From a virus (Duplodnaviria > Caudoviricetes): a stretch of DNA of 51,576 nucleotides. Position numbers and translations under genes: made by a program. The DNA lies in IMG/VR virus record IMGVR_UViG_3300038330_000010, positions 1-51,576 of that record, one strand, 5' to 3'. Each line of letters opens with the position of its first letter. Position 1 is the first letter of the stretch. The notes under the pieces were generated by a model. That model made no database searches. It saw only the letters and a program-made list of their open reading frames with translations, and was not told where the DNA came from. Shown here one piece after another: positions 521 to 51,576 of the stretch.

Positions 521-936
521 ACGATATGGGCCATCTCAACCTGCCAGGGGATGTGTCGCCGCCCCAGGTAGCGAGTGCGCCAATACCCAAATTCGTGATA
601 GGCATTCTTAGCCTGATCGCTCTGTAGGTCCTCAAACCGGGTAATGGGCGGCGGTATGCTCACAGTCATTAGGTCAGCGACCTTATGCTCAGCCGACTGC
701 TCGTACATACGGTTGCGTACCTGTAGGGGTGTAAGACTATCCCCTTCGATGTACCTGCCAGAGACAGCTTTCATCCACTTGCGTACGGTGGGACGACTCG
801 CCTCGATCTGTTGGCCCACTACATAGGGGTTACGCCCTAAGCGAACCTGGGAGTAGAACCACGTTTTCGCTTCCTCTGTGAAGTTCCCGCCCTTGTTCTT
901 AGGTTCATCAGGCGGATAGTCTTTGGTCTTGGCCAC
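1..936 (-). CDS. terL: Terminase large subunit, 5' part (continues across the junction into 49620-51576; about 790 aa in total)
   Basis: The frame of the 49620..51575 ORF stays open on the - strand from 519 up to a TGA at 991-993. GTG at 936 gives MAKTKDYPPDEPKNKGGNFTEEAKTWFYSQVRLGRNPYVVGQQIEASRPTVRKWMK...HIPWQVEMAHIVMSWLIEAQ...PPGGGKTT. The ORF track misses this part. Confidence 0.88.
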   Translation of the reverse strand, partial: MAKTKDYPPDEPKNKGGNFTEEAKTWFYSQVRLGRNPYVVGQQIEASRPTVRKWMKAVSGRYIEGDSLTPLQVRNRMYEQSAEHKVADLMTVSIPPPITRFEDLQSDQAKNAYHEFGYWRTRYLGRRHIPWQVEMAHIVMSWLIEAQQKEERIRGVLNTPPGGGKTTTMTHDLPAWAICRNRDLRVALGSNTTPQATKYTRRLRNTLERNTLLNVDFGNFKPEETEVWRQDEFLVDGVTGQEASIGYMLALSGFDAEDPHVKRRLDNEQDEIWDIIRANAAVFMAGEKESTVTALSYQMHFLGGRYDMNLWD

Positions 937-943
937 GAGAGAC

Positions 944-949
944 AGTATA
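944..949 (-). promoter_or_regulatory. Candidate -10 box (TATACT) for a leaderless terL/late transcript
   Basis: TATACT lies 7 nt upstream of GTG 936 with no SD; leaderless mRNAs are common in actinobacteria. The -35 match is weak. Confidence 0.45.
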
Positions 950-1036
950 GCTGCTTCCAAAACGGTTGGACAGGCCCAGAGGAGGCTACATCATAGCCTG
1001 CGTCCGCGCTCGCAAACATCCCCCGTGTCAAACAAT

Positions 1037-1068
1037 CGAACGTGTGTTCGCGTGCGAACGTGTGTTCG
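1037..1068. promoter_or_regulatory. Two tandem LexA (SOS/Cheo) box matches
   Basis: CGAACGTGTGTTCG at 1037-1050 and 1055-1068 matches the Gram-positive/actinobacterial CGAAC-N4-GTTCG consensus. Confidence 0.55.
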
Positions 1069-1374
1069 TGTGCGTGCGAGCGTGTGCGTGCGTGCGTGCG
1101 CTGCATCATATATGATGCACTATGTATGACGCGTGCGAGCGTGTGTGAATAGGCGCGTGTGCATGCGTGCATACGTATGCATATGTGTGCTATGTAATAG
1201 TGCGAGTGCTAACTATTGCAAGCATGTGCTAGCGTGCGAGTGTTAACAAAAGCTTGATGTTTTCTTGATGTTTGAGCGTGTGCGAGAGTGTAGTGTTGCG
1301 AGTGTTGACAAGTGAATAGCGAAAGCACACACGCACTCGCAGAATCTAATCACTTAGTGAAAGCGAGAACGAAT

Positions 1375-1680
1375 ATGGCTACTGTGAAAACGTTTGTGTC
1401 ACTCATCGAAGCATTCGTCGAAGATGCGACAAGCGTAACGCTCGAAGAAATCGTCGAAGTTTTCTTCAGCGAAACGCAAGGCGCAGATAAAGCGATCAGC
1501 GCAGATGAGCTTACGATTCTCGTAAGCGAAGTGACTGAACACGACTACAGCGCAAAGTCGATTCGAGCGAATCTTCGCAAGCATGCGTATCGTGATCAGT
1601 CGAAGATGCGAAACGCAACATGGCGAGTATCGCAAGAAGATGCTCTAGCTGAAGTCAAGCACTACTTGCGAGTAGCGTAA
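1375..1680 (+). CDS. Small HTH-like DNA-binding protein (paralog of 3043 and 10680), Pro-free
   Basis: ATG after GAAAGCGAG; ISADELTILV...AKSIRANLRKHAYRD...ATWRVS aligns with ITATELAALV...PKQVRAYLRKEFARD...SSWKIT of 3043..3264. Confidence 0.8.
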   Translation: MATVKTFVSLIEAFVEDATSVTLEEIVEVFFSETQGADKAISADELTILVSEVTEHDYSAKSIRANLRKHAYRDQSKMRNATWRVSQEDALAEVKHYLRVA

Positions 1681-1738
1681 GCACTCAGTAGCTTGTCAAC
1701 AAGCGAGAGCGTGTGTGCTTTCAAGAAAGCGAGCGAAG

Positions 1739-1918
1739 ATGCAAGAACTACGCAAGATATTCGCAGCGATCGAAGTAATCGATCAGCATGCGAGAGCGAT
1801 CGCAGCACTCGCAGATGAGCAGCAGCGAGCGCACGAGTACGAGTGCATGATGCAAGATCTTCACGATCTTCAGCGACATGTTGTCGATCAGATGCGATTG
1901 ATCGCGACAGCGAACTAG
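1739..1918 (+). CDS. Hypothetical 59-aa helical protein with no Pro or Gly
   Basis: ATG after the same GAAAGCGAG RBS variant; amphipathic helical sequence. Confidence 0.7.
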   Translation: MQELRKIFAAIEVIDQHARAIAALADEQQRAHEYECMMQDLHDLQRHVVDQMRLIATAN

Positions 1919-1924
1919 AGCGAG

Positions 1925-1957
1925 AGCGAGCGTGCGTGAAAGCGTGCGCTCGCTTTC
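1925..1957 (+). terminator. GAAA-tetraloop hairpin closing the CC/GG-free unit
   Basis: AGCGAGCGTGCGT-GAAA-GCGTGCGCTCGCT followed by TTC; U-tract is short. Confidence 0.6.
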
Positions 1958-2017
1958 GGGCGTCGTATGCCTCGTGGTGAGCACGGTCGGGCACCAGCGG
2001 CCTCGCGGTTGGCCCCC

Positions 2018-2193
2018 GGAGGTCCTCCCACCTCCACTGGCGGATCGGCGTCCCTACCCATGCCCCAGGACGGAGGAGGTCCTCCTACCGGTGGAGCGGC
2101 GTCCCTGGGGTGGGGCGGACCTCCAACCGGAAGATGGGCGTCCGTATGGAGTCCCACACCGAAGTGGAGGATCACGGAGGACCTCCAGACGCC
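2018..2193. repeat. Array of GG(A/C)GG-W-CCTCC palindromes interspersed with GGCGTCC
   Basis: Palindromes at 2018-2028, 2075-2085, 2114-2124 and 2176-2186; GGCGTCC at 2047, 2098 and 2137; inverted GACGCC at 2188. Confidence 0.85.
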
Positions 2194-2318
2194 CTTTCGG
2201 CCGCCTTTTGCCCGGAATACACGGCTAGGAGCCACATATAGACGGCTCAGGCTGGACAAAGGAAGGCCTACCTAAGATCGGAACCTCCTCAGAGTGCGAA
2301 AACAATCACAAGGACTGG

Positions 2319-2347
2319 TTGCATGAGGAGTTCCGGGTCGCTATCAT
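2319..2347 (+). promoter_or_regulatory. Sigma70/SigA-type early promoter
   Basis: TTGCAT-17 nt-TATCAT, upstream of the RBS and ATG at 2399. Confidence 0.7.
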
Positions 2348-2398
2348 GCATGCATGAGCTTCGCACGATGCGCGGATCCTACAGAAAGCGAGGACAAG

Positions 2399-2746
2399 AT
2401 GGCTCATAGTGGGGATTGTCCCCATCATCCAGATCGAGGCTGTGCCTGCTGGCAGAACCCGATCATCATAGGAGAGTCCTACGTTGTAGTGGCTCGATAC
2501 GGCAGAGAGCAGGATGCGAGGATGATAACGGAGACTCCGCCATCCTCTGAGAAATTCCAGAACAAGGAATATGAGATCCCTCGCTCCACAGAGCGCAGAA
2601 GGTCAGTCCGCAGAAACAGCGGTCAAGCCTTCAACAGCCTAGACAGAAGGGGGACAATCCGAGTCAACAATCGGTCGGTCAAGCAAGGCAAGCAGTGGAG
2701 AACATCAGGTCCTGAGCGATCTGTCCTCCGCTACACAACAGGATGA
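2399..2746 (+). CDS. Hypothetical early protein (basic C-terminus)
   Basis: AGAAAGCGAGG RBS before ATG 2399; ORF track. Confidence 0.65.
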   Translation: MAHSGDCPHHPDRGCACWQNPIIIGESYVVVARYGREQDARMITETPPSSEKFQNKEYEIPRSTERRRSVRRNSGQAFNSLDRRGTIRVNNRSVKQGKQWRTSGPERSVLRYTTG

Positions 2747-2759
2747 AAGAGGTCAAGCC

Positions 2760-2933
2760 GTGAACATCGACGAGGCAGATCCGTACAGCACCGTGTTGAG
2801 CCGCATCAACGCGGCATTTGAGTTCGGGAGGGACCACAACATGGAAATGAGTCAGAAGGAGTACGACATCCTCCGTGCTATCGCTCTGGAGGCTGAAGCT
2901 GCCGACCCAGATTTCGAGTGGATCATCCCGTAA
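2760..2933 (+). CDS. Hypothetical 57-aa acidic protein (below the ORF-track cutoff)
   Basis: GAAAGAGG RBS, GTG start, MNIDEADPYSTVLSRINAAFEFGRDHNM...DFEWIIP*. Confidence 0.65.
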   Translation: MNIDEADPYSTVLSRINAAFEFGRDHNMEMSQKEYDILRAIALEAEAADPDFEWIIP

Positions 2934-2937
2934 CCTC

Positions 2938-3000
2938 GTATGCAGAGTGGAGCGTCTGGAGAGTTAGCCATATTCGCTCTGGACGCTCCATCGTGCATAC
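2938..3000 (+). other. Long intergenic hairpin (possible RNase III or processing site)
   Basis: GTATGCA..TGGAGCGTCTGGAG / CTCTGGACGCTCCA..TGCATAC pair with G-U pairs. Confidence 0.6.
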
Positions 3001-3042
3001 CTCAACTCACCACATGAAGCCACTGAAAGGAGGTGAAACATA

Positions 3043-3264
3043 ATGGCAGCGAAGAAGCCAGCAGAGGTTCCGACGATCACCGCCACAGAGCTAGCCGCTC
3101 TCGTGGAGAGGGACCCGAAGCAGGTCCGTGCATATCTCCGCAAGGAGTTTGCAAGGGACCCGGAAGCGAAGGGTTCGTCGTGGAAGATCACCGCACAACT
3201 GCAGGAGCAGACGGTGAACCACTTCACGGCCCTGAACGAGCGCAAGGAAGCAAAGGCCTCCTGA
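3043..3264 (+). CDS. Small HTH-like DNA-binding protein
   Basis: Strong RBS GAAAGGAGGTG; TATELAALVERDPKQVRAYLRK helix-turn-helix pattern. Confidence 0.8.
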   Translation: MAAKKPAEVPTITATELAALVERDPKQVRAYLRKEFARDPEAKGSSWKITAQLQEQTVNHFTALNERKEAKAS

Positions 3265-3412
3265 CGTTCATCCACAACTGAAGTCCGCGTTCGTGCCTGA
3301 GAGGGAAAGTCCCTCAGTGAGGAAACACCATGTAACGGTGAACAGAGGTTGTGCCTACAAATCACAGTAGGCACTTCCTGTGTCCATTGACGCAAGAAAG
3401 GAGGTGAACCAA

Positions 3413-3682
3413 ATGCCAACAGGAGAACTACCAGATAGGGACGTCACTCCGTTTGCGGAGCTAACGTCCGTGATCACAAGGGACTGGCTAGTCCAGAACT
3501 CCCCAGAGGACATCGTGGCCTACACGAACGACTTTGGGATGGCACGGGACCTAGTCAGTGAGATGGCCATGAGCCTATCACTGTGTCCCGTCCACTTCAT
3601 CGACTGGGCCATCTGCTTCGACGATGAGGATCCTGAGTGTGGGCAGGTCCGAGCGATCTTTCCACAGAGCCACGACACATAG
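3413..3682 (+). CDS. Hypothetical protein with Cys/His cluster
   Basis: AGAAAGGAGGTG RBS; CPVH..C..C motif. Confidence 0.75.
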   Translation: MPTGELPDRDVTPFAELTSVITRDWLVQNSPEDIVAYTNDFGMARDLVSEMAMSLSLCPVHFIDWAICFDDEDPECGQVRAIFPQSHDT

Positions 3683-3690
3683 GAGGAGCC

Positions 3691-3918
3691 GTGAACAACG
3701 AGCCGACTCGCACATGGCCGTGCGAGAAATGCGGAGCAACCGTAGAGCGGTACAGAGGGCAGGATGACGTTTCCTGCTCCGAGTGCGGAACGCCTTACAA
3801 CTGCTTCGGACAGAGGTTGCGGGACGATTACCGTGACAACCCTTCCAACTATGACTCCGACATCGGAGACATGGAGGGATACGAGATGGAGATGCTCAGA
3901 AAGGAGCATGGTGAGTAA
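3691..3918 (+). CDS. Zn-ribbon protein
   Basis: AGGAGG RBS; CEKCG...CSECG. Confidence 0.75.
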   Translation: MNNEPTRTWPCEKCGATVERYRGQDDVSCSECGTPYNCFGQRLRDDYRDNPSNYDSDIGDMEGYEMEMLRKEHGE

Positions 3919-4195
3919 GGAATCGAAAGACCTGACCTACGAGCAGACGCAGGAACTCCTGCGAGCCCCGTGGAAGCGTGGCTATCTGACTCGGGACTTC
4001 CACTACAACGGCCTGCATCCCGCAGGGGAGCGAGTCACCTGGAAGACCTACCACAACGACACGGACTACATTTCCGTAAGGCTCTGGGGAGAAATCTCCG
4101 CAGACGGCAATTCCATGTACCCGATTGTGGAATTCACGGAAGTGCCAGAGTTGGTGCGTCCAGCTGAAACAGACGAGGATGGGAACTACCTATGA
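3908..4195 (+). CDS. Hypothetical protein
   Basis: AGAAAGGAG RBS; coupled to neighbouring ORFs. Confidence 0.7.
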   Translation: MVSKESKDLTYEQTQELLRAPWKRGYLTRDFHYNGLHPAGERVTWKTYHNDTDYISVRLWGEISADGNSMYPIVEFTEVPELVRPAETDEDGNYL

Positions 4196-4416
4196 AAAGG
4201 CACATGATGCCTGAGGGAAGTCTGAACCGCTATCCGTTAGCGGAACTGACAACCATCAGGACAACCAAGCACATGGGGCTCTATACCACAGAGGAGCTCC
4301 TGCTAATGACGGAGGTGATCGAGAACCTGAAGCGGGTCAAGCGGCAGCGTCTCCATGACGAGGCACAGGAGCGGAAGATTGCTCGGAAGCTCCGCAACAA
4401 GAAGGTCGAGGTGTAA
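4192..4416 (+). CDS. Hypothetical basic protein
   Basis: ATGA overlap with the upstream gene. Confidence 0.65.
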   Translation: MKRHMMPEGSLNRYPLAELTTIRTTKHMGLYTTEELLLMTEVIENLKRVKRQRLHDEAQERKIARKLRNKKVEV

Positions 4417-4418
4417 GG

Positions 4419-4631
4419 ATGCTTATCCTGATAGGGCACGACAAGAACGGAGCGTTCGCGGCCTACAAGCCGATGTCCGAAGTGGTCAAGCTGATCAAGG
4501 AAGACCCTGCGTTCACCGTGGGGTTAGTGGAATGCATGGAGGATATGGAGTTCAATCCAGACGACATCTCCCCTGCCCACTGGATGCAGTTGAGGAAGGA
4601 TATCCTGAACAGCATGAGGGCCAGCGCATGA
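4419..4631 (+). CDS. Hypothetical protein
   Basis: GAGGT RBS; tight packing. Confidence 0.65.
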   Translation: MLILIGHDKNGAFAAYKPMSEVVKLIKEDPAFTVGLVECMEDMEFNPDDISPAHWMQLRKDILNSMRASA

Positions 4632-4855
4632 GCGAGGACCTAACCCGTGAGTTTGTGGACTCAATCAAGGACATTGAGGACGAGTATGCGGATGCTCACC
4701 ATGATGGACACAGTTTGTGGATCACCTACGACCAGAGAGGGATAGTGAGCCTCGACGTTTGCGAGGAGCCTCCATTCAGCAATGATGGCGGGCTCCTGCA
4801 GATCAACCTGTCGGAGTTTTTCCAGTCCCTGTTGTATGTCCTAGAGGAGAGATAA
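4628..4855 (+). CDS. Hypothetical acidic protein
   Basis: ATGA overlap; MSEDLTREF start within the 4355..4855 ORF. Confidence 0.65.
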   Translation: MSEDLTREFVDSIKDIEDEYADAHHDGHSLWITYDQRGIVSLDVCEEPPFSNDGGLLQINLSEFFQSLLYVLEER

Positions 4856-5043
4856 TGGAATACGACCAAGCGACGGATGAGCGGACCTTCGACGATCTGC
4901 TCCTTCATCTGAAGAAGGCCGATGCCTTGATGAACCTAGCGTTCACCGCTACTGGCCTAGAACGCCTCAATGCGGAGCACAAGGCTCACGATCACGTGGT
5001 CAAGGCCTGGAACACAGCCGCTTACCTGCAAGAGCGCCAATGA
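4855..5043 (+). CDS. Hypothetical protein
   Basis: GAGGAG RBS, TAATG overlap. Confidence 0.65.
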   Translation: MEYDQATDERTFDDLLLHLKKADALMNLAFTATGLERLNAEHKAHDHVVKAWNTAAYLQERQ

Positions 5044-9687: not shown

Positions 9688-9936
9688 ATGGCATCGAGAG
9701 CAGAGGAAAGAGAGGCTCGATACGAGTCGGTCAAGGTTAAGGTCTGGGCAGTCAAGGGACCGAGAGGTCAACTGCATATCCAGTCTGAGATCCAGCCGCT
9801 AGGTGCGACACTGGTAACAGTGGTCTATCCTGGCAGTAAGACAGAAGGAGGTGAGTTCCTATTCACTACATGGGAAGACGTAAAGGCCTTTGTAGTCCGT
9901 ACGATTACAGCGGCACTAGAGGAAGGAAGAGTATGA
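9688..9936 (+). CDS. Hypothetical protein
   Basis: MASRAEE start within the 9568..9936 ORF. Confidence 0.55.
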   Translation: MASRAEEREARYESVKVKVWAVKGPRGQLHIQSEIQPLGATLVTVVYPGSKTEGGEFLFTTWEDVKAFVVRTITAALEEGRV

Positions 9937-10496
9937 GGCGATTTGCAGCAGCAGTAGCCGCCCTGATTTTAGCCATGATTTTGTTCGTGGCTATGGGCGG
10001 GAATGCATTAGCCGATGGGTACCAGCACCCAACCACAACAACCTATGAGACAACCACAACAACCTATGAGACCACAACAACCTATGAGACAACCACAACT
10101 ACAACCACAACAACTACGACCACGTTGCCAACGACTACCACTACTGAGGCGACGACGACTACGGCACCGACCACTACGACCACAACTACGTTGCCGACAA
10201 CCTCGTCAACACAGCCAGTGGTGACTCTCCCCCCGAGAGTGCCAGATCCAGTTGGTGGGTTTCCCCTGCCGTCAGAGCCTCGGATTGAGTACCCACTGCC
10301 ATCGGATAGGTCAGCAGTAGCGCCAACGACTACTCTTGACCCGTCTGTGGAGGTACTGCCCTTCACTGGGCCTGAGGAAGATGCCATGAGAGATAGGCAG
10401 AGAGAGGCTCTCATAGCTGGCACGGCTATCGTGTCAGGTGTGATACTTCTGGGCTGGAATGCCGTAACGAAGCGGGAGGAAGACGAGGTCGAGTGA
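9933..10496 (+). CDS. Secreted Thr-rich protein with LPxTG sortase-type anchor
   Basis: Signal peptide MRRFAAAVAALILAMILFVAMGGNALA, poly-Thr stalk, LPFTG (10356-10370), TM helix, KR tail. Confidence 0.85.
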   Translation: MRRFAAAVAALILAMILFVAMGGNALADGYQHPTTTTYETTTTTYETTTTYETTTTTTTTTTTTLPTTTTTEATTTTAPTTTTTTTLPTTSSTQPVVTLPPRVPDPVGGFPLPSEPRIEYPLPSDRSAVAPTTTLDPSVEVLPFTGPEEDAMRDRQREALIAGTAIVSGVILLGWNAVTKREEDEVE

Positions 10497-10679: not shown

Positions 10680-11114
10680 ATGGCTCGCAAAGCTGCTACC
10701 GTAGACGACATCGAGGCCCTCGATCTTGAGGAGTTCGACGACGCCGACGAGGTAGAGGAAGCCGCCGCTACAAAGAAGGGCAAGTCGAAGTCCAAGAAGG
10801 ACTCGACACCCAAGGGAATCGGTGCATCACAATTGGCCGAGCACCTTGGTGCAGAGCCCAAGACATTCCGTGCCTGGCTTCGCAGGAAGCAGGCCGACGA
10901 CAACAGCGGAATCGACTTCCCTCACGATGCCAAGACCCGTTACGACTTCGGAGCCAGCTTCGATTCACCGCTCGCCAAGAGTGTGATCAAGGCTTGGAAC
11001 TCCGAGTCGCATGAGAAGGGCGCAGGTATCGAGAAGGCTCAGGCTGCTCGCAAGGCGAAGCAAGCCGCAGCCAAAAAGACTGGCACTGGTGCCAAAAAGA
11101 AGGTCGCCAAGTAA
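10680..11114 (+). CDS. Nucleoid-protein-like HTH DNA-binding protein with acidic N-terminus and Lys/Ala tail
   Basis: AGAAAGGAG RBS; GASQLAEHLGAEPKTFRAWLRR core related to 3043 and 1375. Confidence 0.8.
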   Translation: MARKAATVDDIEALDLEEFDDADEVEEAAATKKGKSKSKKDSTPKGIGASQLAEHLGAEPKTFRAWLRRKQADDNSGIDFPHDAKTRYDFGASFDSPLAKSVIKAWNSESHEKGAGIEKAQAARKAKQAAAKKTGTGAKKKVAK

Positions 11115-15799: not shown

Positions 15800-16084
15800 G
15801 TGACTGAGGAAACTCATGGGACGGCAGCAGAAGAAGCTGTGGGCCTGGTCTACGGCGACAGAGCAAAGACCTACGGTCACCCGGCCGATGTGTACGAGAA
15901 GGTCGCAGAGCTATGGTCTGGGTACCTAGAGCAGAGCGTCACGGCAAAGGATGTAGCCTTGCTGATGGTTCTGTTCAAGCTAGGCCGGTTCATTGAGAGG
16001 CCCAACAGAGACAGTCTGGTAGATGCTCACGGCTATCTGCTGGTGTGGGAGAGGATAGACAGAAGGAGTACCGGAGAGGAATGA
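15800..16084 (+). CDS. DUF6378-like protein
   Basis: GDRAKTYGHP...VAELWSGYL...DVALLMVLFKLGR...DSLVDAHGY. Confidence 0.85.
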   Translation: MTEETHGTAAEEAVGLVYGDRAKTYGHPADVYEKVAELWSGYLEQSVTAKDVALLMVLFKLGRFIERPNRDSLVDAHGYLLVWERIDRRSTGEE

Positions 16085-16500
16085 AGATAACACCCAAGAT
16101 GAACAGACCATTACAGTTCCATGAATTGCGAACCTTTCAGCTATACCACAGGGCTTGGCTGGAACACAACTTCCCGAACCAGAAGCCACACGAAGCATTG
16201 CTCGGTCTGGGTGAGGAGGTGGGCGAGTTGATGCATGCCCATCTAAAGAGGGATCAGGGTATAAGAGGAGTGGATGATGTAGCCTATAGAAACGGTGCGA
16301 TGGATGCTGTCGGGGACATAATGATCTACCTTGCCAGCTACTGCAACACCAACAACTTGGACATGGCGAAGTGCCTGATGTATGCATGGGAGGAAGTACG
16401 TGCCAGAGACTGGATCAAATACCCCAAAACGGGTGTTGCCCCAACCGAACAGCCCACGAATGCGGAATCAAGTCAGGGAGATTCGGGCTATTCTGAGTGA
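16081..16500 (+). CDS. MazG-like dNTP pyrophosphohydrolase
   Basis: GEEVGEL...DAVGDIMIYL acidic motifs. Confidence 0.88.
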   Translation: MKITPKMNRPLQFHELRTFQLYHRAWLEHNFPNQKPHEALLGLGEEVGELMHAHLKRDQGIRGVDDVAYRNGAMDAVGDIMIYLASYCNTNNLDMAKCLMYAWEEVRARDWIKYPKTGVAPTEQPTNAESSQGDSGYSE

Positions 16501-16565
16501 AACCTTTGAGGACGTTGATTATGTGGACTTTGACGAGTTGGCCTTGCAGATATGGAGAGTGACCC

Positions 16566-16850
16566 GTGGTTGACCGTGGCATATACCCGAAGTTTTTGGT
16601 ATTCGAGCATCCTGACGAGGAGGTACAGGACGTCCGTGTCACCTACTTCCACAAGCACAGACTGCCTGACAGTCCTGTCGTAACCAACCTGCACCAGCAC
16701 TACGCCCCGCCGTTGGATGACTTCGTGTTTGTCCTGAAGCCCATCTCCGACAAGCATGCCCGAGTAGCTCTGGCTGCCTACGCTGAGTCAGTCAAGGAAG
16801 AGAAGCCGAACCTGTCCAACGATATTCGTGAGGTGCTGGATGACTTCTAA
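16566..16850 (+). CDS. Hypothetical phage protein
   Basis: FVLKP..DKHARVALAAYA motif recurrent in phage nucleotide-metabolism loci. Confidence 0.7.
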   Translation: MVDRGIYPKFLVFEHPDEEVQDVRVTYFHKHRLPDSPVVTNLHQHYAPPLDDFVFVLKPISDKHARVALAAYAESVKEEKPNLSNDIREVLDDF

Positions 16851-17148
16851 ACCTAACCGTGACCAACTAACCGAAGCCCTGGCCCTACATCAGCGAGCGT
16901 TGTCAGCATTGGCGCTGGAACTGCCTGCCCAAGTGTTCGAGGACTACAAAGCCATTGCGACCGTATTGGATGAAGCTGCTCGTTGGGCTAGGGACTTCCC
17001 CACCGACGTACAAGTAGAAGCCTGCGCTAAGGCTCTCTGCCTCTATGCGTGGGGCGCTGACAAATGGGAGGACGATCACAAGGGCATGTGGCGAGAACAA
17101 GCGAGGGCTGCGTTGGAGGCGGTAACCATGATCGGAGACAACCAGTGA
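16840..17148 (+). CDS. Hypothetical protein
   Basis: GAGGTG RBS; WREQARAALEA tail. Confidence 0.6.
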   Translation: MTSKPNRDQLTEALALHQRALSALALELPAQVFEDYKAIATVLDEAARWARDFPTDVQVEACAKALCLYAWGADKWEDDHKGMWREQARAALEAVTMIGDNQ

Positions 17149-17993
17149 CCTTTAAGGTAGTAAGAGCCCACGACTTGACCTCATTGTGGGCCAAGAATGT
17201 ACGCCAGCATCTGTATCGGGAAGAGGTTGACCTGTATCTGGGTATCGGTACCAACCTCAATGACATGGTACTGAAGGCAGACTCTGCGGAGTACGACTTC
17301 AACCTGCAAGAGTTGTGGTTGAACAAGCAACGTTGGACCAGGCTGATTCGGGAATACATCGACCCGTATGAGTTGTCCAGGTTTGTCAAGAATAGCCACA
17401 TCATCTACAACGGTAAGGGAAAGAATGGAGTTGTCACCAATATGCATTTCCGTTCAGTCGACCGCCGAGCCGACCTCCGACGCCACAAGTGGGGCAACTG
17501 CTTACTGGCCGCTACGTTTAGAGGTACACCGAATTCCAGAGTGCCGCCAACACTTACACTTCACAGCCGAGTCTCATACAATGCCTATATGCTCGGTATG
17601 GATATGGGAGTGGCTCACGCAATTGCTCGGGAGATTGCCGACCCCGCCACTATTGCAATCCAATGGCATTTGGATGTCATGCAACTCCATTCCTTCAAGT
17701 GTCTGCCCTACCTGTATACACAACCAGACCTAATGGAGGTGCTAGAGGACAGGGATCATCTCACTGAGCTGGCTTTGCAGTTCCCTACCTGGAAGAGCAT
17801 CTCCCGTTGGTGGTGGAAGGTATTGCAGTTCGAGGATGAAGGCAAGACTGTAGCGGCTGAGTTGTACGGGCCCTTCAAGAGGATCCGCAGAAGGTACGAG
17901 GAGTATCAGCGTGGGATTACCGTGCCATCGGTACACATCTCGGAGCTGGACTTCAGCAAACTAGGAGATGGTTATAGTGCTAAGAGACCGTAA
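17145..17993 (+). CDS. Divergent thymidylate-synthase-fold protein (dCMP-type Asp)
   Basis: WGNCLLAATF (catalytic-Cys strand), LHSRVSYNAYMLGMD (R..+11 Asp), WHLDVMQLH. Confidence 0.65.
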   Translation: MTFKVVRAHDLTSLWAKNVRQHLYREEVDLYLGIGTNLNDMVLKADSAEYDFNLQELWLNKQRWTRLIREYIDPYELSRFVKNSHIIYNGKGKNGVVTNMHFRSVDRRADLRRHKWGNCLLAATFRGTPNSRVPPTLTLHSRVSYNAYMLGMDMGVAHAIAREIADPATIAIQWHLDVMQLHSFKCLPYLYTQPDLMEVLEDRDHLTELALQFPTWKSISRWWWKVLQFEDEGKTVAAELYGPFKRIRRRYEEYQRGITVPSVHISELDFSKLGDGYSAKRP

Positions 17994-18735
17994 GGATGTT
18001 GACCATCAGCTTCGCAAGAGGTTTATCCAGACAGGTGAGGTAGTCAACCGGGAAGAGTGGCAAGCCATGAGGGACGATCGTCCCATGACTGTCACCTATG
18101 AGATTGCCGACGTTGATCTGGAGATACCTGTACCCCTGGCCATTGATCTATGGCAGGACGTGTGCCAACCAAATCTCCCCTGGGCTGAGGATCACTTCAA
18201 GGAGCGAGTTGGGGGTGTACCCCTCAACCCGGGGGAGCAATACAAGAACTGGCCTTGGTATGAGCAAGGGGTAGAGGAACACAAAGGCACAGGTAAGTTC
18301 AGTCACACCTACATGGAGAGAATGTGGGGTGATGCAGCGGCCACACTGGATGGGGTAGTCAAGCTCCTGAGGGAAAGACCTATGACCCGCCAGGCATATT
18401 GCACAATATGGTGGCCAATAGATGTGATGAACTCCAACCTCAGTCGGCGTGTGCCATGTTCTCTCGGGTACCTGTTCCAGTTCAGACCAGAAACACAGTC
18501 CTTCGATATGTGGTACTACATGAGGTCGGTAGACTTCTATCGTTACCTGTGGGACGACATCTACATGGCCGGGCGCTTGCTTCAGTGGGTCAGGAGGAAG
18601 GCACACATCGAAGCGCCCATCGGTTCAGTCCACCTGAAGATAGCCAACCTCCACGTGTTTGCTGCCGAGCAGAGCAGACTGGAAGAGGAGTTCAAGACAG
18701 AGGAAAGGGATAGGTTGAACAATGCTTTCCGATAG
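17968..18735 (+). CDS. Thymidylate-synthase-fold dCMP (hydroxy)methylase-like enzyme
   Basis: TRQA, VPCSLGYLFQFR, YMRSVDFYRYLWDD (Asp at the E. coli ThyA N177 position), IANLHVF. Confidence 0.85.
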   Translation: MVIVLRDRKDVDHQLRKRFIQTGEVVNREEWQAMRDDRPMTVTYEIADVDLEIPVPLAIDLWQDVCQPNLPWAEDHFKERVGGVPLNPGEQYKNWPWYEQGVEEHKGTGKFSHTYMERMWGDAAATLDGVVKLLRERPMTRQAYCTIWWPIDVMNSNLSRRVPCSLGYLFQFRPETQSFDMWYYMRSVDFYRYLWDDIYMAGRLLQWVRRKAHIEAPIGSVHLKIANLHVFAAEQSRLEEEFKTEERDRLNNAFR

Positions 18736-19282
18736 CCATTTCATGGACGTGGCCGGGGTTATCTCCGACGCAGGCACATGCTCCCGGCTGCAGGTTGGGG
18801 CAGTGATCGTCAGGGATAGGCGCATCATCTCCACAGGATACAATGGTGCCCCTAAAGGTATGCCTCACTGTGACCACAGTAACCCAGATGATTTAAGGTT
18901 TACTACCATTATGGGCGGCTGTGTTGTGTCGGTACATGCTGAAGCCAATGCCATTTGCTATGCAGCCAAGACCGGGATAGCCACAGATAAGGCCAGTCTC
19001 TACACCACAGATGCACCGTGCCAGAAATGCGCGGAGTTGATCGTCAACGCCGGGATAATCGAGGTGATATATGGAAGAGAATACAGAATCCGTGACGGGC
19101 TCGATCTCCTTAAAGCAGCTAGGGTCCACGTTACGAGCATTGAGCAATCCAGCCTGCACTTTATGCCCCCTGCACCAGGACACGGACCGAGTGTGCATCC
19201 CAGTCAACAGTCCGACCCGAGCTTTGAAGAAGGATGGACAGCAGCTGCGGATGCTCATCGTCGGGGAGGCCCCAGGGTATAG
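18722..19282 (+). CDS. dCMP deaminase
   Basis: TCSRLQVGAVIV...GYNG...HAEANA...PCQKC; the C-terminal extension overlaps the polymerase gene. Confidence 0.93.
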   Translation: MLSDSHFMDVAGVISDAGTCSRLQVGAVIVRDRRIISTGYNGAPKGMPHCDHSNPDDLRFTTIMGGCVVSVHAEANAICYAAKTGIATDKASLYTTDAPCQKCAELIVNAGIIEVIYGREYRIRDGLDLLKAARVHVTSIEQSSLHFMPPAPGHGPSVHPSQQSDPSFEEGWTAAADAHRRGGPRV

Positions 19283-49630: not shown

Positions 49631-51576
49631 TATTTCTGTCCTCGTTCCTTCTGCGCCGGGCCTCAGCGTGACTGATACCACGGCCCCCATCAGTGTCGGG
49701 TTTTGACCTATCTATGTAGGATTGCTGTGCTAACCGGGGAGGCATGGTGTCCTGGTATGGATGCTTGACCCCGTTGTAGCCTCCGCTGGTGGGGACTTTG
49801 AGAGTTTTCGGTATCTTGTACCTATTAGCCTCAAGGAACCAGTGTCCGTGAACCATATCATCCGTAGGACTATCTGGCCATTCAACAAGCTCAGCCTTGA
49901 ACTCATTGATCTTTGCCCGAGTCTTGAGGTCGTCACCGGAATACGGAAGGTCAACACGACCATCTCTATATCTGGGTCGGAGTACCTGGACACCATACTC
50001 CTCGTCCGCTTTCTTAGGCGTAGTCTCGTGGCCCTTAATATGCGTGGCATTTATCTTCATCCACTCCTGTACGAAGGTGTGCTGGAAGAGGTACCTCTGG
50101 GCGGCATTTTGCTCAACGATCCAGAGACCGATAGGCCACCCCATATCTCTCGACCTCTTCTGCCAGGTATCCAGAACTCCATGGTATGCCCTGTCCCTAG
50201 GGGAGTATGAGAGGAAGCTGTCCGCTGATAGCCTCGCTCGGATGATGTCAACGAGGAAATCTTCATCGGTGTTGTCATTCCATATCCACCACTGTATTGA
50301 CCACCAGTTTACTGCGCTCGGATCCACCGTAGCTATGGAGAAACAGTCCTCTTTCGGGGTAGTACCGTCGTCTGCCTGCTCACTGAGGTGCTTGGGAATC
50401 TGTAGCAAGGTACGGTTGTAGTTAAAGCAGCCGGGGTACAGGATCCCATCCTGACCTACACCCCCTGTCAACCAGACCTCTTGAATCAAGTTGTCCTCTG
50501 TGGACTCGTCTGCCTGGTTATAGGTCAGTTCATATTTCCTGGCATTAGCGTTCTTAGCCCGCATGAGGTCGTAGAACTTGAAGCGGAGCGGATCGAGCAG
50601 ACAGTCTATGTGGTCCGCCTGCTTCATAGAGGACAGATTGTGGCATTTTGAGTCGTCGTGGGCGGGGAACTTAACGTACTTGTAGATCCTCTGGCGTATA
50701 CGAACAGGCTGTACGTAGCCATCTTCATCAGGAGTGAGGTTCTCGACTGTCTGTAGGTCAGAGCTGTCTATGCCGTAGTTGTCTACCAGCTCCTTAGCCA
50801 GCTCCTCCCTAATCTCTTCCATCTGCTCAGCGTCCATATTAGGACTGATGCGTGCGGCCAGAAGCTCGTCAAAGTCGTCGTCTGTGGCGAAGGTCATATC
50901 TCGACAGTGACGAAACAGGTCATATTTGCCGAATCTTGTTCCAATCAGCCCAATCATACCCCCCGGTTCAGCCCTAGATACGGCATACTCTTCCCACCAC
51001 TCTGCGAGGTCGTCACGCTTTTCCGGCGCATCGGAGTTCTTGTCGTCCACCAGGTCATCCCACAGGTTCATATCGTATCTGCCACCCAAGAAGTGCATCT
51101 GGTAGGACAGGGCAGTAACGGTAGATTCTTTCTCCCCCGCCATGAACACCGCAGCATTAGCCCGGATGATATCCCATATCTCGTCCTGCTCGTTGTCGAG
51201 CCTGCGTTTGACATGCGGATCCTCAGCATCAAACCCGGACAGGGCTAGCATGTAGCCAATGCTGGCTTCCTGTCCAGTGACCCCATCGACCAGAAACTCG
51301 TCCTGTCTCCACACCTCTGTTTCTTCAGGCTTGAAGTTGCCAAAGTCCACATTGAGCAGGGTGTTGCGTTCTAAGGTGTTTCTGAGCCGCCTGGTATACT
51401 TCGTTGCCTGTGGGGTCGTGTTGCTACCCAGCGCCACACGCAGATCCCTGTTACGACAGATAGCCCATGCTGGTAGGTCGTGAGTCATGGTAGTGGTTTT
51501 ACCACCCCCAGGCGGGGTATTCAGAACCCCACGAATCCTCTCTTCCTTCTGTTGAGCCTCGATCAGCCAGCTCATA
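49620..51576 (-). CDS. terL: Terminase large subunit, 3' part
   Basis: PPGGGKTT Walker A, GGRYD..LWDD Walker B, IGTRF, VDPS, VEQNAAQ, TDDMV nuclease acidic residues. Confidence 0.93.
   Translation of the reverse strand, partial: MSWLIEAQQKEERIRGVLNTPPGGGKTTTMTHDLPAWAICRNRDLRVALGSNTTPQATKYTRRLRNTLERNTLLNVDFGNFKPEETEVWRQDEFLVDGVTGQEASIGYMLALSGFDAEDPHVKRRLDNEQDEIWDIIRANAAVFMAGEKESTVTALSYQMHFLGGRYDMNLWDDLVDDKNSDAPEKRDDLAEWWEEYAVSRAEPGGMIGLIGTRFGKYDLFRHCRDMTFATDDDFDELLAARISPNMDAEQMEEIREELAKELVDNYGIDSSDLQTVENLTPDEDGYVQPVRIRQRIYKYVKFPAHDDSKCHNLSSMKQADHIDCLLDPLRFKFYDLMRAKNANARKYELTYNQADESTEDNLIQEVWLTGGVGQDGILYPGCFNYNRTLLQIPKHLSEQADDGTTPKEDCFSIATVDPSAVNWWSIQWWIWNDNTDEDFLVDIIRARLSADSFLSYSPRDRAYHGVLDTWQKRSRDMGWPIGLWIVEQNAAQRYLFQHTFVQEWMKINATHIKGHETTPKKADEEYGVQVLRPRYRDGRVDLPYSGDDLKTRAKINEFKAELVEWPDSPTDDMVHGHWFLEANRYKIPKTLKVPTSGGYNGVKHPYQDTMPPRLAQQSYIDRSKPDTDGGRGISHAEARRRRNEDRNNGR
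51057..51576. repeat. Terminal direct repeat, copy 2
   Basis: Matches 1-520. Confidence 0.97.

Follow-up and report, generated by a model that had tools for sequence, protein, structure and literature searches.

A gene unit nearly devoid of CC:GG steps, and its predicted winged-helix protein, in an uncultured actinobacterial phage

CRISPR systems of type I-F use CC as their protospacer adjacent motif (PAM), and the Pseudomonas phages that they target are depleted in CC (PMC12174588), while the Cas9 of Acidothermus cellulolyticus has the PAM 5'-NNNCC-3' (PMC7733487). Leading regions that are free of the recognition motif allow members of the Autographiviridae to escape from a Type I restriction-modification (R-M) system (PMC12455610), and the injection of T5 DNA halts at a cis-acting site (bioRxiv 10.1101/866236). 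The present work concerns a tract at positions 1024–1969 of the virus record IMGVR_UViG_3300038330_000010 (IMG/VR; Duplodnaviria, Caudoviricetes), whose whole length of 51,576 nt is referred to here as the window. This tract, the desert, is nearly free of CC:GG steps and contains gp1375 (1375–1680, + strand), with which the rightward early arm opens in the ~51-kb genome of an uncultured actinobacterial phage. Two paralogues, gp3043 (3043–3264, + strand) and gp10680 (10680–11114, + strand), lie outside the desert.

The dinucleotide depleted in the desert, CC/GG, is the same one that is depleted in phages targeted by type I-F systems. In those phages the shift is mild and genome-wide (PMC12174588), whereas here it is near-total and confined to 0.5–1 kb, and the rest of the genome is normal. 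The nearest analogues in print are the first-step-transfer DNA of T5 and BF23 and the motif-free leading regions of T7-like phages (PMC12455610). Like these, the desert is a short, presumably first-expressed unit near the packaging genes, purged of a word that something in the cell would read. It differs from them in that the purged word is a single dinucleotide step rather than a site of 4–8 bp, in that the purge reaches the amino acid composition of the encoded protein, and in that the unit holds palindromes that are avoided elsewhere in the genome. Full-text literature searches turned up genome-wide PAM depletion, and nothing in them described a dinucleotide-free gene unit with recoded proteins. 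We consider it fairly probable that gp1375 is an immediate-early DNA-binding regulator of the MerR/Xis type whose gene escapes a candidate reader of CC:GG, and that its paralogues are DNA binders encoded in ordinary DNA.

The CC:GG desert and its recoded gene

The desert, to which no strand is assigned, contains no CC on the + strand and six GG. The CC-free run extends from 1023 to 1970, a length of 947 nt; when the window was simulated 300 times with a first-order Markov model, the longest such run had a mean of 137 nt and a maximum of 232 nt. Between 1024 and 1969 there are six CC+GG, whereas other segments of 946 nt hold at least 116, with a median of 138. Three of the six GG are forced by codons within gp1375 and two belong to a GGG at the 3' edge. 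Before position 1958, GG is found only at 1152, 1377, 1480 and 1622. The 351 nt of non-coding DNA upstream of gp1375 (1024–1374) contain one GG and no CC.

The product of gp1375 is 101 amino acids (aa) long and starts at an ATG, with a start Met that is common to two orthologues. It includes no Pro, a single Gly (GGC, with the GG at 1480) and a single Trp. The gene contains no CC and three GG, which is the forced minimum: the three that could not be avoided lie in ATG-GCT at the start (Met-Ala), in the single Gly codon and in the single Trp codon. When the gene was resampled synonymously using the codon usage of the genome, the mean was 32.1 CC+GG and the minimum in 3000 draws was 20, and in a separate resampling of 5000 draws none came near the observed count. 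The two paralogues, used as controls, were normal in the same test, with 35 CC+GG (17 CC and 18 GG) in gp3043 against 32.2 expected and 58 in gp10680 against 61.4 expected.

The desert arrangement beside the terminase gene is kept in the four related genomes found, which are virus genomes of 43–50 kb (G001, G002, G003 and G004) reached through the gp10680 family. In each of them a member of the gp1375 family adjoins a divergently oriented terminase gene and lies within a CC/GG-poor tract, with a CC/GG-dense block after it. The desert proteins of all five genomes have no Pro, one Gly and one Trp, at a mutual identity of only ~30–40%. The desert genes of G001, G002 and G004 contain 2, 3 and 4 CC+GG, respectively, where the forced minima are 2, 2 and 3 and the means on resampling are 23, 28 and 19.

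When four strict deserts from this genome and its relatives were pooled, 16 CC/GG were observed against 345 expected. The depletion was confined to CC/GG, with every other dinucleotide undepleted, and CG and GC were up ~1.7-fold, so that the G+C content of the deserts stays near the genome level. The ban on CC/GG acts on DNA, because the non-coding flanks and all of the synonymous choices obey it, and the composition of the protein, with no Pro and little Gly, follows from this constraint. It is the ban that has reshaped gp1375, down to its lack of Pro and its one Gly and one Trp.

The family of gp1375 and its predicted fold

An earlier note on this DNA, prepared from the letters and their translations, had described a core shared by gp1375, gp3043 and gp10680, and had attributed the lack of Pro and the single Gly of gp1375 to avoidance of CC and GG. 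The composition was confirmed from the translation, and the proposed cause is supported by the absence of every avoidable CC/GG from synonymous sites and by the reach of the ban into the non-coding flanks. The shared core was also recovered. Judged by sequence comparison, the three proteins are homologous: BLASTP matched gp1375 with gp3043 (33% over 57 aa, E 8e-6) and gp3043 with gp10680 (43% over 28 aa, E 7e-5), and two hhalign comparisons of small profiles gave 86% and 87.6%. With a query profile built from gp1375, gp3043 and their three close homologues, HMMER returned 43 proteins at E <= 0.001 among 1.84 billion representatives. Three long proteins (P0091, P0100 and P0104, 334–627 aa) were left out, and the 40 remaining matches together with the five seed sequences, minus the duplicate P0002, made up an alignment of 44 rows. 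The resulting family profile contains no relative of gp10680, and its alignment by hhalign with the 64-sequence gp10680 family gave a probability of 94.5% (E 8.1e-8) over 31 columns. In a search of five related phage genomes the same profile found the desert copy in all five (E 3.6e-11 to 7e-26) and the gp10680 orthologue in all five (E 1.4e-7 to 6.1e-6). It did not match gp11247, a true HTH_17 gene beside gp10680 that passes the Pfam HTH_17 model with 30.8 bits against a cut-off of 27.

The gp1375 family is an unnamed group of proteins of 70–110 aa with a core made up of a strand, helix, turn, helix, wing strand and helix. Leu46, Lys61, Arg64, Arg68 and Arg73 are invariant in the family alignment, Ala65 and Trp83 are nearly so, and the signature of the family is I[ST]A..L, K..RA.LR, RDQ and W.I. 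The second member in this genome, gp3043 (73 aa, four Pro), comes from an older duplication common to the relative G001, which also has a gp3043-type second copy with four Pro outside its desert; copies of this type are absent from G002, G003 and G004. When 48 rows and 89 columns were used for a maximum-likelihood tree, many forks of which were unresolved, gp1375 joined the desert copies of G001 and G002 (support 80/84) and gp3043 joined the second copy of G001 (support 85/87). The duplication that gave rise to gp1375 and gp3043 therefore predates the split of these phages.

The more distant paralogue, gp10680 (144 aa), has kept only the helix-turn-helix (HTH) half of the core, at about residues 42–72. 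Together with 63 relatives it displays an acidic N-terminus of the LDLEEDFDD type, a Lys-rich linker and a PKTFRAWLRRK helix, followed on the C-terminal side by a conserved RY.FG...KAW...SHE.G part and a Lys-rich tail. There is no Pfam domain on record for any of the 64 members.

Pro is absent from 24 of the 44 family representatives, 18 of which also contain no more than one Gly. These 18 are called purged here, a class judged from protein composition alone whose link to deserts is presumed; scans of viral contigs (with gp1375 and with a subfamily alignment) and of metagenome contigs (with the subfamily alignment) confirmed the DNA of no further purged relative. Met or Trp followed by Val, Ala, Asp, Glu or Gly, which forces a GG, accounted for 7 of 57 cases in the 18 purged proteins, compared with 24 of 76 in the remaining ones. 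Just before the wing, 14 of the 18 purged members have Asn and 14 of the 26 others have Gly, and the near-invariant Trp is replaced by Tyr or His in three of the 18 and in none of the 26. Unpurged members have 2–6 Pro in the same fold.

The column before Lys61 behaves as a helix N-cap. Across all 44 representatives it contains 17 Ala, 11 Gly, nine Pro, five Asp, one Glu and one Gln, with Pro or Gly in 18 of the 26 unpurged members and Ala, Asp or Glu in 16 of the 18 purged ones. At this site gp1375 has Ser-Ala-Lys, gp3043 Asp-Pro-Lys and gp10680 Glu-Pro-Lys. These residues are as the earlier note gave them, but the Pro that it called conserved is not conserved family-wide. The idea that the nucleotide constraint had overridden a conserved residue was thus right in kind and overstated in its example; better cases are the near-invariant Trp and the Gly-to-Asn column. 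Where the second helix of the desert protein is capped, Ala/Asp take the place of Pro/Gly, and Asn takes that of Gly before the wing.

AlphaFold2 (AF2) models were obtained for gp3043 from the 44-row alignment (predicted local distance difference test score, pLDDT, 75.5) and for gp1375 from a 3-row alignment (pLDDT 77.5). The first contains a strand at 12, helices at 14–21 and 25–35, a strand at 49 and a helix at 51–72, and the core of the second contains a strand at 40–41, helices at 43–54 and 60–70, a strand at 85–86 and a helix at 87–98. The order of strand, helix, tight turn, recognition helix, wing strand and C-terminal helix is present in both models. The extra acidic N-terminal part that had been reported for gp1375 is seen in its model as two additional helices (7–16 and 23–34), and residues 1–39 include eight acidic and two basic residues.

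In structure comparisons using VIA-align, the gp3043 model was closest to the N-domain of IF2 (Z 6.6, root-mean-square deviation (rmsd) 2.1, 58 aa) and the DNA-binding domain of pSK1 Par on DNA (Z 6.1), and further matches, down to Z 3.7, were to RacA, CvkR, GlnR, TipAL, BmrR, CarA, SoxR, TnrA, Pukovnik Xis and BldC. These matches are winged HTH domains of the MerR type or resemble them, and small DNA binders of that type dominate the list. Weak Pfam matches among the 44 members were to IF2_N (five), HTH_20 (five), HTH_12 (five) and MerR_1 (three, best E 0.0074). Weak BFVD rows for the gp1375 model include HTH and excisionase proteins of actinophages, and the Atlas neighbours of gp10680 are of the MerR, HTH_17 and Nu1 types, with feature-search scores that are all <= 0.87 and serve as leads only. 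Foldseek found no match to the gp1375 model at E <= 0.001 in the PDB or BFVD, and there was no significant sequence match for the family in Pfam, PHROG or the PDB.

The invariant Lys61, Arg64, Arg68 and Arg73 lie on and just past the second helix in the models. As this is where such domains touch DNA, we infer that gp1375 is a small winged HTH (wHTH) DNA binder of the MerR/Xis/BldC type. The family is like the MerR-type wHTH binders (Xis, BldC, RacA, pSK1 Par and TnrA/GlnR; HTH_17 and MerR_1 in Pfam) in its size of 70–100 aa and its topology, and it shares with them basic residues on the second helix and an aromatic wing residue. It is unlike them in that it has a signature of its own, falls below the Pfam cut-offs and includes long forms that add one or two acidic N-terminal helices.

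The surrounding unit and the phage genome

Upstream of gp1375, three direct repeats of the form GTGCGAGTG(C/T)T(A/G)AC(T/A)A are found at 1193–1314 (+ strand) and end in TTGACA-like hexamers. The word TTGACAAGTGAAT within them is common to G001, and the repeats are candidate early promoters or operators. A scan for the sigma-70 consensus found one site against 1.3 expected, and none upstream of gp1375. The word GAAAGCGAG precedes both open reading frames (ORFs) of the desert (1359–1367 and 1725–1733) and the G001 orthologue (contig L010, upstream of 1495), and it looks like a GG-free stand-in for the Shine-Dalgarno word. An inverted repeat of 20 nt brackets gp1375 (+ strand), with arms at 1321–1340 and 1703–1722 that are 95% complementary; G001 has an 11-nt inverted-repeat pair at the equivalent places. 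The repeat could form an RNA panhandle, or could be a processing site or a pair of protein sites.

The second ORF of the desert, gp1739 (1739–1918, + strand), encodes 59 aa with no Pro, Gly or Trp and contains no CC or GG. It has no match to the gp1375 family and is not conserved in G001, G002 or G004. A GC-rich hairpin of 17 bp follows at the 3' edge of the desert (1921–1958, + strand; −40.6 kcal/mol for 81 nt, z −3.2), and is terminator-like without a U run. Beyond it, at 1970–2260, is the CC/GG-dense block (no strand assigned; 13–34 CC+GG per 100 nt), which carries GGAGGTCCTCC-type palindromes and three direct repeats of 15–20 nt. A comparable dense block also comes after the desert in the relatives, for example at 1829–2300 of L010. 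Possibilities for the block are a protein-binding array, or an entry or termination signal. A search of 800–3100 against Rfam returned only chance-level microRNA and internal ribosome entry site rows.

Of the first 5 kb, 1318–1970, 3013–3286 and 3840–4011 are represented in contigs of three metatranscriptome libraries, a hint that gp1375, gp1739 and gp3043 are transcribed. Contigs from a DNA run cover nearly all of the same 5 kb; the intervals 1–835, 2005–3006 and 4176–5000 lack contigs from the RNA libraries, although contigs cannot prove silence. RNA-library contigs from two runs share the start 1318, which hints weakly at a 5' end. In one contig of an RNA library 1970 is linked back to 988 (a step back of 983), a joint that spans the desert almost exactly, and a DNA-run contig over 1017–2447 has about twice the depth of its neighbours. 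Either a tandem copy or a terminal repeat could account for the joint and the rise in depth, as could a circular molecule or template switching.

The window is an IMG/VR record with a completeness rating of 100%. Its ends, 1–520 and 51057–51576, are the same 520 nt with 18 mismatches, which identifies the nominally linear record as a circular assembly of ~51,056 bp, closed on two strain variants. The gene for the large terminase (~750 aa), which starts at 960 on the minus strand, is uninterrupted over the assembly junction, and we take the minus-strand genes after it to be the structural genes. The + strand from ~1300 to 25,000 holds early and replication genes, including those for WhiB, a RepB-primase with AAA_25, an SNF2 helicase, a MazG-like pyrophosphatase, a thymidylate-synthase-like protein, a dCMP deaminase, a UDG-PolA fusion and a PD-(D/E)XK nuclease. 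WhiB is an actinobacterial signature, and its gene points to an actinobacterium as the host; Acidothermus cellulolyticus is also an actinobacterium.

When the cultured-phage collection was searched with gp1375 and gp10680 by tblastn, no match was found, and blastn of 1000–5000 against cultured-phage DNA matched only an unrelated small gene at 2767–2889. At the levels searched, no cultured phage is related to the window. The small gene is ~71% identical to a hypothetical gene in 15 records of Mycobacterium phages, Anselm and SweetiePie among them, and its identity to Rhodococcus phage NiceHouse is 78%. Elsewhere in the early arm, the cluster at 16045–19282 encodes the MazG-like pyrophosphatase, a 309-aa protein without known function (phrog_13667), the thymidylate-synthase-like protein, the dCMP deaminase and then the fusion of a UDG domain with PolA, a gene set that resembles modified-pyrimidine pathways. 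No guanine-modifying enzyme was found among the ORFs scanned, which were part of all the ORFs. Also in the early arm, 9870–10496 encodes a protein of 208 aa; its N-terminus is signal-anchor-like, a C-terminal segment is hydrophobic, and it carries long Thr-rich TTTYETTTT repeats.

Possible readers of CC:GG and the explanations weighed

In the genome body (2300–51056) CGCG occurs 18 times where 69 are expected (z −7.2), CCGG (z −7.5) and GGCC (z −7.0) rank with the words most strongly avoided, and TGCA and many 6-bp palindromes are avoided as well. The desert holds four CGCG, two CGATCG and AAGCTT, ATCGAT and TGATCA, at a density 10–100 times that of the rest; the 48.7 kb outside it have one CGATCG and no AAGCTT. 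The same is seen in G001 and G002, where CGCG is missing from 11 and 19 kb, respectively, of the rest and present in the desert. Since it carries such words, the desert is no tip with general protection from restriction, which argues against plain restriction-site avoidance as the cause; the CC:GG ban takes precedence over palindrome avoidance. A protective mark on the GG/CC steps of the body was also considered and is a poor fit, since CCGG and GGCC are avoided there. A two-letter reader, such as one that recognises a CC/GG PAM, would fit the ban, and candidates could be a CRISPR effector with a CC/GG PAM, a new nuclease, or a marking enzyme of the phage or the host.

Two explanations concern the desert as a unit. 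The desert might be the leading tip in a first-step transfer like that of T5, with gp1375 as an A2-like pre-early DNA binder that brings in or protects the genome, the block at 1970–2260 as the injection stop and the ban as the means of keeping the tip restriction-free. The unit adjoins the divergently oriented terminase gene in all five genomes, is self-contained and is closed by a hairpin, with a block rich in repeats and palindromes after it, and there are precedents both for motif-free leading regions that escape Type I R-M (PMC12455610) and for a cis-acting stop to injection (bioRxiv 10.1101/866236). The palindromes that the desert holds and the rest of the genome purges, here and in the case of CGCG in G001 and G002, speak against such a tip. 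The record is, moreover, a circular assembly, and contigs of sequencing runs cannot show the ends of a molecule. We regard this explanation as unlikely. The desert could instead be a target-free cassette with an immediate-early anti-defence role, in which the reader is a CRISPR system with a CC/GG PAM and gp1375 is an Aca-like autorepressor or a bifunctional HTH inhibitor, perhaps acting with gp1739. The avoidance is limited to one PAM-sized dinucleotide step on both strands, with no other dinucleotide depleted, CC and NNNCC are the PAMs of known systems, in the first case with CC-depleted target phages (PMC12174588; PMC7733487), and tolerance of palindromes that the body avoids fits a reader other than a restriction enzyme. 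However, the other 50 kb of the genome are full of CC/GG and stay targetable, nothing resembling a known Acr or Aca turned up (in searches that did not include the PADLOC library), and the HTH-type protein is the only conserved resident of the deserts across genomes, as gp1739 is not conserved. A cassette of this kind is distinctly unlikely.

Two further explanations concern the proteins themselves. The earlier note had proposed that a single DNA-coating or protecting protein exists in immediate-early, early and middle versions, represented by the three paralogues. The order of the genes along the early arm (1375, 3043, 10680) fits this, and gp10680 has Lys-rich tracts as in nucleoid-type proteins; Xis/BldC-type relatives can bind DNA cooperatively. 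No support beyond the gene order was found for three temporal versions, nor any for coating or protection, the predicted fold being that of small site-binding wHTH proteins of the MerR/Xis type. Moreover, gp1375 is net acidic (17 acidic and 12 basic residues), gp3043-type copies are absent from three of the five genomes, so that no relay of three stages is conserved, and gp10680 shares only ~31 columns and has a conserved C-terminal domain of its own. We judge the proposal improbable. Least credible of all is a cause at the level of the protein, in which a small all-helical domain lacks Pro and Gly and thereby leaves its DNA free of CC/GG. Helices do dominate the family, and the G003 copy has no Pro even though its gene contains CC, but codon usage predicts 32 CC+GG in gp1375 where only the three forced ones are present, the non-coding DNA upstream is purged too, and unpurged members carry Pro in the same fold. 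This cause is already contradicted by the synonymous-site and non-coding data.

The reading preferred here, of gp1375 as an immediate-early regulator whose gene escapes a reader of CC:GG, would operate as follows. gp1375 would be made first after infection and would regulate its own unit, the switch to the next genes, or both, and its gene would have to stay invisible to a putative factor reading CC:GG in double-stranded DNA. From ordinary DNA, the unpurged paralogues would perform related DNA-binding jobs.

Several results weigh against this reading. The desert gene of G003 (contig L005, 3445–4002) avoids only GG (three forced GG) and has 15 CC, and its protein is without Pro, so that the loss of Pro can outlast the ban or can be partly a trait of the protein. 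A direct BLASTP comparison of gp1375 with gp10680 was not significant (E 0.35), though in the same register, and hhalign with small profiles gave 1.6% for this pair. The RNA evidence consists of assembled contigs, which are without strand, timing or true ends. No member of the family, nor gp1375, gp3043 or gp10680, reached a Pfam gathering threshold, a search of PDB sequences with the family profile (hmmsearch) gave no matches at E <= 10, and all structure matches (Z at most 7.0) were lower than the VIA-align caution line of Z 8. The gp1375 model is closest to EF-hand lobes (centrin N-domain, Z 7.0, rmsd 2.7, 74 of 75 residues), which make up nearly all of its top structure rows, and in the Atlas the TM scores were 0.46–0.60.

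Calcium binding of the EF-hand type was examined and rejected, as the 12-residue loop pattern D-x-[DNS]-...-[DE] occurs in none of the 44 members in a PROSITE-like form and in one in a loose form. EF-hand Pfam models gave weak matches in one or two of the 44, and the shorter paralogue is without the first helix of the four-helix EF-hand-like lobe. We read the likeness in the model of gp1375 as probably one of shared topology.

The ban is narrow, as it concerns one base-pair step, and it has been kept through deep divergence and outranks the palindrome avoidance of the genome body, which makes testable the question of what reads CC:GG in the first minutes of infection. It amounts to a nucleotide-level rule strong enough to strip three amino acids from a conserved protein, and the untouched paralogue in the same genome gauges the cost: Pro or Gly is exchanged for Ala or Asp at the helix cap, Gly for Asn before the wing and Trp for Tyr or His. 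The family itself comprises unnamed putative early phage regulators, so far only from uncultured phages. A wider interpretation, which we put forward tentatively and hold to be possible rather than probable, is that this is a lineage of small wHTH immediate-early proteins that has long evolved under a two-letter ban read by a factor in infected actinobacterial cells. If so, the pairs of desert and non-desert paralogues would constitute a natural control experiment.

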